A DNA stretch of 37,798 nucleotides from the UHGV virus genome UHGV-1315295. One strand, given 5' to 3'. The translations under genes were made by a program, and so were the position numbers. This document shows, in pieces, positions 4,381 through 5,260 of this stretch. How positions within the stretch are numbered: the first letter of the stretch is position 1; each line of letters starts with the position of its first letter. This stretch comes from a virus. The notes under the pieces were generated by a model. The model was given only the letters and a program-made list of their open reading frames with translations. It was not told the origin of the DNA and did not search any database.

Positions 4381-4394
4381 AAAGGAGTGATGGT

Positions 4395-5080
4395 TTGCTG
4401 AAGGCAGTCTCAGAGTTATTAGGTGGGTCACCAGGCCTGAAAGGACGTCAAATTGCCAAGGAGCTGGGGCTGGTCAGCTGTCAGCAGCCGACTCACCGGT
4501 ATAAACGTGGTGGTCATGAACATGTTGCTATCCCTATCTACCTTGAACGGCAGTTCGCCGTGACCGAGCCAAATCAGGTGTGGTGCGGTGATGTGACCTA
4601 TATCTGGACGGGTAAGCGCTGGGCGTACCTCGCCGTTGTTCTCGACCTGTTCGCAAGAAAACCAGTGGGCTGGGCCATGTCGTTCTCGCCGGACAGCAGG
4701 CTTACCATGAAAGCACTGGAAATGGCATGGGAAACCCGTGGTAAGCCCGTCGGGGTGATGTTCCAGGCGATCAAGGCAGTCATTATACGAGCAGGCAGTT
4801 CCGGCAGTTACTGTGGCGATACCGGATCAGGCAGAGTATGAGTCGGCGTGGAAACTGCTGGGATAACAGCCCAATGGAGCGCTTCTTCAGGAGTCTGAAG
4901 AACGAATGGGTGCCAGCGACGGGCTATGTAAGCTTCAGCGATGCAGCTCACGCAATAACGGACTATATCGTTGGATATTACAGCGCACTAAGACCGCACG
5001 AATATAATGGTGGGTTACCACCAAACGAATCGGAAAATCGATACTGGAAAAACTCTAACTCGGTGGCCAGTTTTTGTTGA
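4395..5080 (+). mobile_element. IS3-family transposase OrfB (DDE domain) remnant; 5'-truncated (no orfA) and split by a frameshift near 4780-4840
   Basis: Two consecutive ORFs (4395-4841, 4838-5080) read ...[34 protein letters not shown]... and ...[25 protein letters not shown]...[13 protein letters not shown]..., characteristic IS3-family OrfB blocks; begins 15 nt after the hsdR stop. Confidence 0.7.
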
Positions 5081-5260
5081 CCACTTCATCTACACTCGCG
5101 GCATTGGAAGCAAAGATATGGTCGTCTGGCACCTGATGCACATTGATAAGGCTATCAACCACACGCTGGAGAAGTTCTTTCCACCAGCCTGAACACAATG
5201 ATTGTGCGCCTTATAGCGCCCATTAAGATAGATAAGTACTTACCAATAAGGAGAAAACAC

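Follow-up and report, generated by a model that had tools for sequence, protein, structure and literature searches.

An IS911/ISEc52-type remnant probably marks the splice of a foreign type I restriction-modification cassette into an SSU5-like phage-plasmid

IS911 and ISEc52 are insertion sequences (ISs) of the IS3 family. They are 1250 bp long and bounded by 36-bp inverted repeats (IRs; 5'-TG...CA-3' at the two ends), make target-site duplications of 3–4 bp, carry orfA and orfB linked by a programmed -1 frameshift, and move by copy-out/paste-in via a figure-eight and a circle. Phage-plasmids of the SSU5 group have been reported to carry defence systems, including putative restriction-modification (R-M) systems, as well as IS-mediated insertions (bioRxiv 10.1101/2025.09.12.675607). 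Here we describe a locus in the virus genome UHGV-1315295, analysed as one strand of 37,798 nucleotides (nt; hereafter the window), in which positions 4381–5260 form a three-way junction between a captured hsd (type I R-M) cassette, an IS remnant and phage-plasmid backbone. We propose, with a probability of about 0.85, that the decayed right half of an IS911/ISEc52-type IS marks the splice of a foreign type I R-M cassette into an SSU5/pHCM2-like phage-plasmid.

Sequence comparison assigns the DNA left of 4461 to the cassette, 4474–5088 to the IS, and everything from 5089 onward to the backbone. An initial annotation, made from the letters alone, had taken the whole of 4381–5260 as an IS scar whose transposase fragment starts 15 nt after the hsdR stop. 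An IS does lie inside this interval, but it ends at 5088, with 4381–4460 belonging to an ATPase gene and 5089–5260 to the backbone. Similarly, the 15-nt spacing describes the start of an open reading frame (ORF; TTG at 4395), but not the IS-specific DNA, which starts only at 4474.

The IS remnant (4474–5088, plus strand) corresponds to nt 634–1250 of the 1250-nt element, that is, the 3' ~73% of orfB and the right end. In BLAST comparison with complete 1250-bp copies of ISEc52 (L001 and L003; L numbers denote comparison sequences), window 4458–5088 aligns to nt 618–1250 at 98.7% identity. Over 630 aligned columns of the remnant, identity is 98.9%, with five mismatches and two one-base gaps. Counted over 633 columns, eight differ from ISEc52 (five substitutions, two one-base gaps, and G4460, which is ATPase-gene DNA), as against 27 that differ from IS911. 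ORFs at 4395–4841 and 4838–5080 match Pfam rve (E = 1.1e-16) and rve_3 (2e-10), as well as NCBIfam transpos_IS3 over profile positions 172–277 (2.2e-29) and 305–368 (2.6e-20) of 369; both transpos_IS3 matches fall below the whole-protein cutoff, the ORFs being fragments. The IS3-family transposase remnant recognized initially is therefore real, and the element can be named as IS911/ISEc52-type.

The right end of the element is intact. Its 36-bp right inverted repeat (IRR; 5053–5088, minus strand), which ends in ...CTTCA at 5088, is identical to the IS911 IRR oligonucleotide TGAAGTGGTCAACAAAAACTGGCCACCGAGTTAGAG that has been used experimentally (Table 1 of PMC2909936). The terminus ...CCACTTCA abuts three different flanks in three independent IS copies. 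Because one terminus recurs beside three different flanks and the repeat matches the published IRR, we regard this as the genuine end of the IS. The flank to its right begins TCT; the left end and its own flank are deleted.

What the IRR abuts is a broken backbone gene. Positions 5089–5192 (plus strand) hold its 3' remnant, 33 codons and a stop, aligned with SSU5 (L005, 6001–6104) and with a Citrobacter plasmid (L006). The intact homologue is SSU5_064 (136 aa), which matches DUF7238 at E = 1.9e-40, and RefSeq names the interrupted gene a DUF7238 family protein in relatives. The IRR/DUF7238 joint is the only transposition junction of the two joints in the scar. Since the IRR lies directly against backbone, a past transposition into the DUF7238 gene is required.

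The joint on the hsd side arose differently. Positions 4381–4460 (plus strand) are not IS DNA; they are the 5' remnant of a GHKL-like "ATP-binding protein" gene, with a Shine-Dalgarno (SD) sequence AAGGAG at 4383–4388, a TTG start at 4395 and ~22 codons. The segment is collinear with Vibrio gigantis plasmid p1 (L008, 9482–9575), where the gene follows hsdR, is intact (361 aa) and shares its ribosome site, TTG start and opening codons with the window; the Vibrio protein matches HATPase_c weakly (E = 3.5e-4, below cutoff). In L007-type E. coli chromosomes the gene is truncated as well, but 63 nt further on than in the window. The 13 nt that follow in the window, GAGCTGGGGCTGG at 4461–4473 (plus strand), are present both in the ATPase gene and in orfB (IS nt 621–633).

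Direct comparison of the window, L007, L008 and ISEc52 resolves the joint. The ATPase gene reads ...GCCAAGGAGCTGGGGCTGG followed by ATAAG, the IS orfB reads ...ATGAAAGAGCTGGGGCTGG followed by TCAGC, and the window switches between them within 4461–4473. G4460 still matches the ATPase gene (AAGGAG) where the IS has AAAGAG, and the fusion of ATPase gene to orfB is in frame, KELGL at the joint being encoded by either parent. Read from these alignments, the cassette–IS joint is a microhomology-mediated illegitimate join and not a transposition joint. It took away the left inverted repeat (IRL), orfA, the frameshift region and the first ~72 orfB codons, in agreement with the earlier claim that orfA and the N-terminal part of orfB are missing. 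None of these parts is found in the window: IS nt 1–617 are absent, the IRL does not occur in 4381–5260, and an IS BLAST gave no further IS piece elsewhere in the window. The complete copy in L003 does contain orfA and the frameshift region.

The remaining coding sequence is itself decayed and is split over two plus-strand ORFs. The first (4395–4841, 148 aa) is a chimera that begins with the ATPase-gene start and 22 codons, continues with OrfB residues ~74–173 and ends in an out-of-frame tail. The second (4838–5080, 80 aa) holds the C-terminal part of OrfB in its original frame and accounts for the rve_3 match and for transpos_IS3 positions 305–368. The frameshift that had been proposed is a single missing base at 4765/4766 (plus strand), where a 1-nt deletion and an A>G substitution turn CCACAGCG into CCAGGCG. 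This removes the HSDQG motif, which we take to be the one with the second catalytic Asp of IS3-family DDE transposases, and breaks the catalytic core. Among the sequences compared, only the window has the deletion; L002, L004, L011, ISEc52 and IS911 do not. In the sister plasmid L002, which has no frameshift, the fusion ORF stays open for 229 aa with a complete rve core.

We considered whether the remnant still functions, either as a mobile IS or as a domesticated ATPase–OrfB protein, for example a truncated-transposase inhibitor or regulator co-transcribed with hsdR. The chimeric ORF still begins with the SD and TTG start native to the ATPase gene, and the L002 fusion is open with its rve core complete. 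Moreover, a promoter and terminator scan of 4200–5600 returned no more than shuffled sequences give and no plus-strand terminator after hsdR, leaving no terminator-like site between hsdR and the scar. Nevertheless, the remnant lacks the IRL, orfA, and the helix-turn-helix (HTH) and leucine-zipper DNA-binding part of OrfAB, and the window copy is frameshifted in the catalytic core. Relatives also tolerate a 2.3-kb intron, a deletion or a replacement of the region, and the pattern of alleles reflects the donor IS copies, not selection for the fusion. We consider a functional remnant very improbable. The remnant has no function of its own, and its likely remaining role is that of a recombination substrate. 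With no transposase possible and one end only, it is non-autonomous, and it offers 630 bp of homology to resident IS911/ISEc52 copies together with one transposase-binding end.

Set beside the described elements, the remnant resembles IS911/ISEc52 in its 98.7–98.9% identity to ISEc52, an IRR identical to that of IS911, a recognizable rve/DDE core, and a ...CA terminus on target DNA. Unlike them, it is a right half only, with a frameshifted core, an internal left boundary at microhomology and a mosaic ISEc52/IS911 interior. Having one end and no orfA, it falls outside the structural definition of the IS3 family, yet on sequence grounds it derives unambiguously from such an element.

Backbone DNA resumes at 5089, at the IS terminus, as anticipated by the initial view that the downstream block begins right after the scar. 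Window 5089–6500 is 88.4% identical to positions 57607–58971 of Salmonella phage SSU5, with the same gene order, and is matched by 787 plasmids, including Yersinia pestis pMT and Salmonella plasmids. A RepFIB-type repA ORF lies at 6950–8005 (minus strand), and a collinear backbone with homologues of SSU5_064–069 surrounds it, as expected of SSU5/pHCM2/pMT-type backbones. Because of this match to SSU5, pMT and the Salmonella plasmids and the presence of repA, we assign the window to part of an SSU5/pHCM2/pMT-type phage-plasmid. About 20 complete, non-mobilizable IncFIB plasmids of 105–115 kb from E. coli and E. fergusonii match window 3000–8200 at ~99%.

The cassette to the left has a different distribution. 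In full, it comprises hsdM-hsdS-DUF4268-hsdR plus the first ~22 codons of the GHKL-like ATPase gene; the window holds hsdR intact and the 3' end of hsdS, while hsdM and full-length hsdS are seen only in relatives. The last intact cassette gene, hsdR (1363–4380, plus strand; 1005 aa), matches TIGR00348 (E = 2.2e-62; 211.6 bits, below the 284.55 cutoff), and relatives annotate it as a type I restriction endonuclease subunit R. The end of hsdR is matched by 37 plasmids, against 787 for the downstream block. In V. gigantis p1, the cassette is 95.7% identical and sits beside a WYL gene and a Tn7-like tnsE gene, apparently within a defence island that travels as transposon cargo. It is also found at ~99.5% identity in 40 E. 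coli chromosomal places, within an IS-rich island.

Two further observations concern the cassette genes and their neighbours. The DUF4268 gene (window 185–1348; E = 1.2e-39) keeps its position between hsdS and hsdR in every cassette copy inspected, on E. coli plasmids and chromosomes and in Vibrio. Beyond hsd, V. gigantis p1 (L008, 1–15000) has the ATPase gene in intact form and then an HTH gene, together with SAVED-domain and nucleotidyltransferase genes resembling CBASS.

Empty sites show what the backbone carried before the insert. In place of cassette and IS, SSU5 and Y. pestis pMT have genes for a recombinase, a small membrane protein, an SPFH lipoprotein, DUF2591 and DUF7238, and shorter versions of this gene set occupy the site in a Citrobacter plasmid and in E. 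coli pEC16-2. The insert replaces ~1.5 kb of backbone, namely the 3' part of the SPFH lipoprotein gene, the DUF2591 gene and the 5' part of the DUF7238 gene. SSU5, pMT and the Citrobacter plasmid lack hsd and the IS and keep the interrupted genes intact; we therefore conclude from these sequences that hsd is accessory here and not native to the replicon, as had been suspected.

The alternative, that hsd is native to the replicon lineage and the IS an incidental later insertion, would fit the observation that hsd or a truncated hsdM is present in every one of the closest relatives inspected (identity of the downstream block at least 95%). It is at odds with the intact, hsd-free sites of SSU5, pMT, Citrobacter and Enterobacter plasmids, with an insert that replaces parts of two backbone genes, and with the presence of the cassette at 95.7–99.5% identity in Vibrio and E. 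coli chromosomes in unrelated contexts. The odds of a native hsd locus are accordingly very low. The comparison of related replicons proposed at the outset thus divides by distance: the wider family is without hsd and the IS, but the closest ~25 plasmids, and only these, share one identical junction.

Base composition, the other check suggested initially, discriminates weakly. GC content is 44.0% on the hsd side and 48.6% in the backbone, and the tetranucleotide distance of 0.0200 lies ~2 standard deviations above the value for same-size backbone chunks (0.0147 +/- 0.0025) but within their maximum of 0.0204. We regard this as suggestive of foreign origin, not decisive.

The whole 880-nt junction is carried by ~25 plasmids, and both joints are base-for-base identical in the three that were aligned (L002, L004 and L011). 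RefSeq labels the scar an IS3-family pseudogene in sister plasmids. Because ~25 plasmids have the same junction, the capture was a single, old event, inherited among the closest relatives; with a dead IS that retains only its IRR, this bears out the earlier reading of the site as the scar of an old IS-mediated rearrangement. The same recurrence addresses the possibility that the contig is a chimera joined at a repeated IS. IS copies are classic points of misassembly, and the best database match to the window's scar is only 96.9%. However, the joints recur base for base in at least 25 independently sequenced complete plasmids, and the lower identity is confined to diagnostic IS911/ISEc52 sites within the scar. 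An assembly artefact can for practical purposes be dismissed.

Those diagnostic sites reveal a mosaic. ISEc52 and IS911 can be told apart at 25 sites; the window agrees with ISEc52 at 22 of them and with IS911 at the other three (4494, 4817 and an A-run at 5047). L002 and L004 reverse this pattern, with IS911 alleles at 22 of the 25, and L011 is a third mosaic. That the joints are identical while the interiors differ indicates gene conversion of the scar interior by other IS copies after the scar formed. In L007-type chromosomes, an IS911 IRL lies in the ATPase gene 63 nt past the microhomology, and over its first 335 nt that element shows four differences from IS911 and 31 from ISEc52. An IS911-like original element is suggested by this IS911 IRL and by the three IS911 alleles that the window retains.

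Some relatives show derived states of the scar. In L003 the IRR/DUF7238 junction is the same, but it belongs to a complete ISEc52 whose IRL lies within hsdM; the flanks (GAGA versus TCTA) show no target duplication. This is the expected product of a new IS in hsdM recombining with the scar and deleting most of the cassette. In L004 (CP058032.1), a deletion of ~1.1 kb (window equivalent 5089 to ~6227) starts exactly at the IRR, and what was left of DUF7238 is gone together with three small genes; the loss would be due either to transposase action at the lone IRR or to recombination involving a second IS copy. A third state involves a 2270-nt group II intron (ltrA), for which the window has an empty homing site at 4602/4603 (plus strand; IS nt 762/763). 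The intron occupies this site in L011 (NZ_CP075739.1) and several sister plasmids.

The intron also appears in other settings. Copies of it lie at 10604–12873 in L011 and at 1535–3804 and 15247–17512 in the chromosomal sequence L012. Plasmids have it in ISEc52-type scars, and in E. coli chromosomes it occupies the corresponding orfB site of another IS3-family element. In the chromosomal copy, on the upstream side of hsd, the intron links a 5' exon from this second IS to a 3' exon from ISEc52, which makes the IS a hybrid.

The left boundary of the insert lies beyond the window and was read in sister plasmids. There the lipoprotein gene is cut after ~190 nt and followed by a 12-nt filler, CTCTTTAAGTCA, then by a 68-nt piece with two direct repeats of TTAAACCTGTGGCGATTCA, and then by the Vibrio-like region upstream of hsdM (L003 6052–6140; L011 2195–2280). 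In E. coli chromosomes, an ISEc52 IRR abuts the 68-nt piece at the same nucleotide at which the plasmid insert starts after its filler. The first 43 nt of this piece also occur without hsd, adjoining an 86%-identical IS relative in an unrelated Klebsiella oxytoca IncF plasmid (L014, 11936–11978). The 68-nt piece could be an IS-end relic or a preferred target. A cryptic IRL at the left end of the insert was considered and rejected, as no convincing IRL similarity was visible by eye.

We propose the following history for the capture. IS911 copies would first have lain in the DUF7238 gene of the plasmid and in the ATPase gene beside hsd in a chromosomal island; the chromosomal half of this state, IS911 in the ATPase gene, is still present in L007-type chromosomes. 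Homologous recombination between the two copies would then have fused the replicons, and an aberrant, F-prime-like excision at the left would have brought hsd onto the plasmid. Finally, a deletion of ~680 bp between the 13-nt repeats would have yielded the scar. As in F-prime-type capture, an IS common to plasmid and chromosome sits at one boundary while the other is illegitimate, with filler, and neighbouring chromosomal genes have been gained while some plasmid DNA has been lost. Unlike classical cases, this capture is inferred only, neither the cointegrate nor the pre-capture plasmid having been found, and the recipient is a phage-plasmid rather than F.

Several observations weigh against this account. 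No plasmid was found with the IS in DUF7238 but without hsd: the predicted junction of the DUF7238 5' part with the IS911 IRL had no match covering at least 80% of it in PLSDB (72,556 plasmids). Some chromosomes (L009, L012 and L013) already have the same joint of the ATPase gene to IS nt 618, and therefore the deletion may be older than the capture, or it may be the plasmid form that gave rise to the chromosomal copies. A 680-bp deletion in cis was rejected as the whole story, as L009-type and L007-type chromosomes are not interconvertible in one step. The frameshift at 4765/4766 rests on a single sequence and could be a sequencing error. Finally, beyond its 12-nt filler, the insert starts at the exact nucleotide where the chromosomal ISEc52 IRR contacts the cassette. 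Simple aberrant excision does not predict this match, which hints at a transposase-assisted or circle-mediated step.

Such a step is central to a different explanation, in which hsd and the one-ended IS remnant, from the upstream piece to the IRR (~8.9 kb), form a translocatable unit that travels between chromosomes and phage-plasmids in circular form. Recombination between the IS copies on either side, or transposase supplied in trans and acting on the IRR, would generate the circle, which would re-insert through homology of the IS or the group II intron, or via the IRR. The scar would then be vehicle and not bystander, and the circle is predicted to contain the junction ...GACCACTTCA joined directly to TCTTAAATGACTC....

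The arrangements on plasmids and chromosomes are indeed circular permutations of one sequence. The plasmid order is lipoprotein', 12 nt, X-hsd-ATPase'/IS(618–1250), DUF7238'; the chromosomal order is IS_Y 5' part, intron, ISEc52(763–1250), X-hsd-ATPase'/ISEc52(618–762), intron(1–159) and onward. The chromosomal hybrid IS 5' of hsd is what would be expected of a circle integrating by homologous recombination inside the group II intron. Furthermore, the IRR is a perfect IS911 transposase-binding site, and the L004 deletion begins exactly there.

Yet no circular form has been seen, and two small Salmonella "plasmid" records (12.9 and 17.4 kb) with parts of the cassette are linear fragments of the chromosomal island. 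The plasmid insertion is not clean: it has no target duplication, contains a 12-nt filler and cost the target 1.5 kb. Transposition in the IS3 family, too, requires two ends. Nor does the shared left boundary demand a circle, given that the first 43 nt of the upstream piece adjoin an IS relative in the K. oxytoca plasmid. Like IS26-type translocatable units and composite transposons, the locus ties hsd to one IS copy, shows circular permutations across replicons and has directly repeated IS copies flanking hsd in chromosomes. Unlike IS26-type units, IS3-family elements use copy-out/paste-in with two ends, the copy here is truncated and inactive, and neither target duplications nor a circle were observed. 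We judge a translocatable unit unlikely, though worth keeping in view, and favour capture by recombination between IS911 copies.

The backbone side of the junction carries motifs of its own. Positions 5193–5260 (plus strand) are a native intergenic region with a palindrome, ATAGATAAGTACTTACCAAT at 5228–5247, and an SD/start context, AGGAGAAAACACATG at 5249–5263, leading into the next backbone gene, a homologue of SSU5_065 (5261–5536). In the window, the palindrome ATAAGTACTTACCAA has 14 matches at up to three mismatches against 0.81 expected, all at or past 5229, and AGGAGAAAACACATG has three against 0.14 expected, the first at 5249, consistent with the initial report that both appear from 5230 onward. 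The palindrome copy at 5229–5246, just 5' of the ribosome site, may be an operator of a phage-plasmid regulator. No exact copy of the SSU5-type palindrome TGTGCGCC...GGCGCACA, situated before the next gene, occurs in the window; the local copy at 5203–5221 is degenerate.

Other features of the replicon were observed in passing. A palindrome family around GGTAAGTACTTACC, likewise with 14 matches at up to three mismatches against 0.81 expected, occurs at 5229–5246, 15087, 16212, 16366, 21206–21223, 22264–22281, 23462, 27736–27753 and 34410–34427; it is confined to backbone DNA, with none in the hsd/IS part. At 6409–6446, in a repeat-rich stretch between small genes and repA, the window has ~38 bases more than L002, as if an iteron-like repeat varied in copy number. 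In several relatives, the RecA-like recombinase encoded immediately upstream of the insertion site contains a LAGLIDADG intein (L003 3239–5578, 779 aa; L006 2846–5188; L017 755–3094), which is absent from SSU5 and pMT, where the gene measures 1077 nt. An Rfam scan of 3800–7000 found no structured RNAs at E up to 0.1.

Within the SSU5 supergroup, the locus is one example of an accessory or defence site with its junctions resolved, and it shows no essential difference from others: the site between recombinase and DUF7238 also varies among SSU5, pMT, the Citrobacter plasmid and E. coli pEC16-2. The scar itself is ordinary and already known, and dozens of published plasmids have it in annotated form. 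Cargo boundaries commonly carry IS remnants, and the broad significance of this one is small.

Its value is more specific. The exact limits of foreign and backbone DNA in the window are now fixed, and other findings in the window depend on them. The locus shows cleanly a join made at 13 nt of microhomology and a dead IS that live relatives have converted repeatedly, and the scar explains the loss of hsd or neighbouring genes in sister plasmids. It also documents a predicted complete type I R-M system on an SSU5-type phage-plasmid and traces its source to a cassette that also occurs in Vibrio and in chromosomal islands of E. coli. If the translocatable unit were real, a complete type I R-M system would shuttle between E. 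coli chromosomal islands and SSU5-type phage-plasmids.

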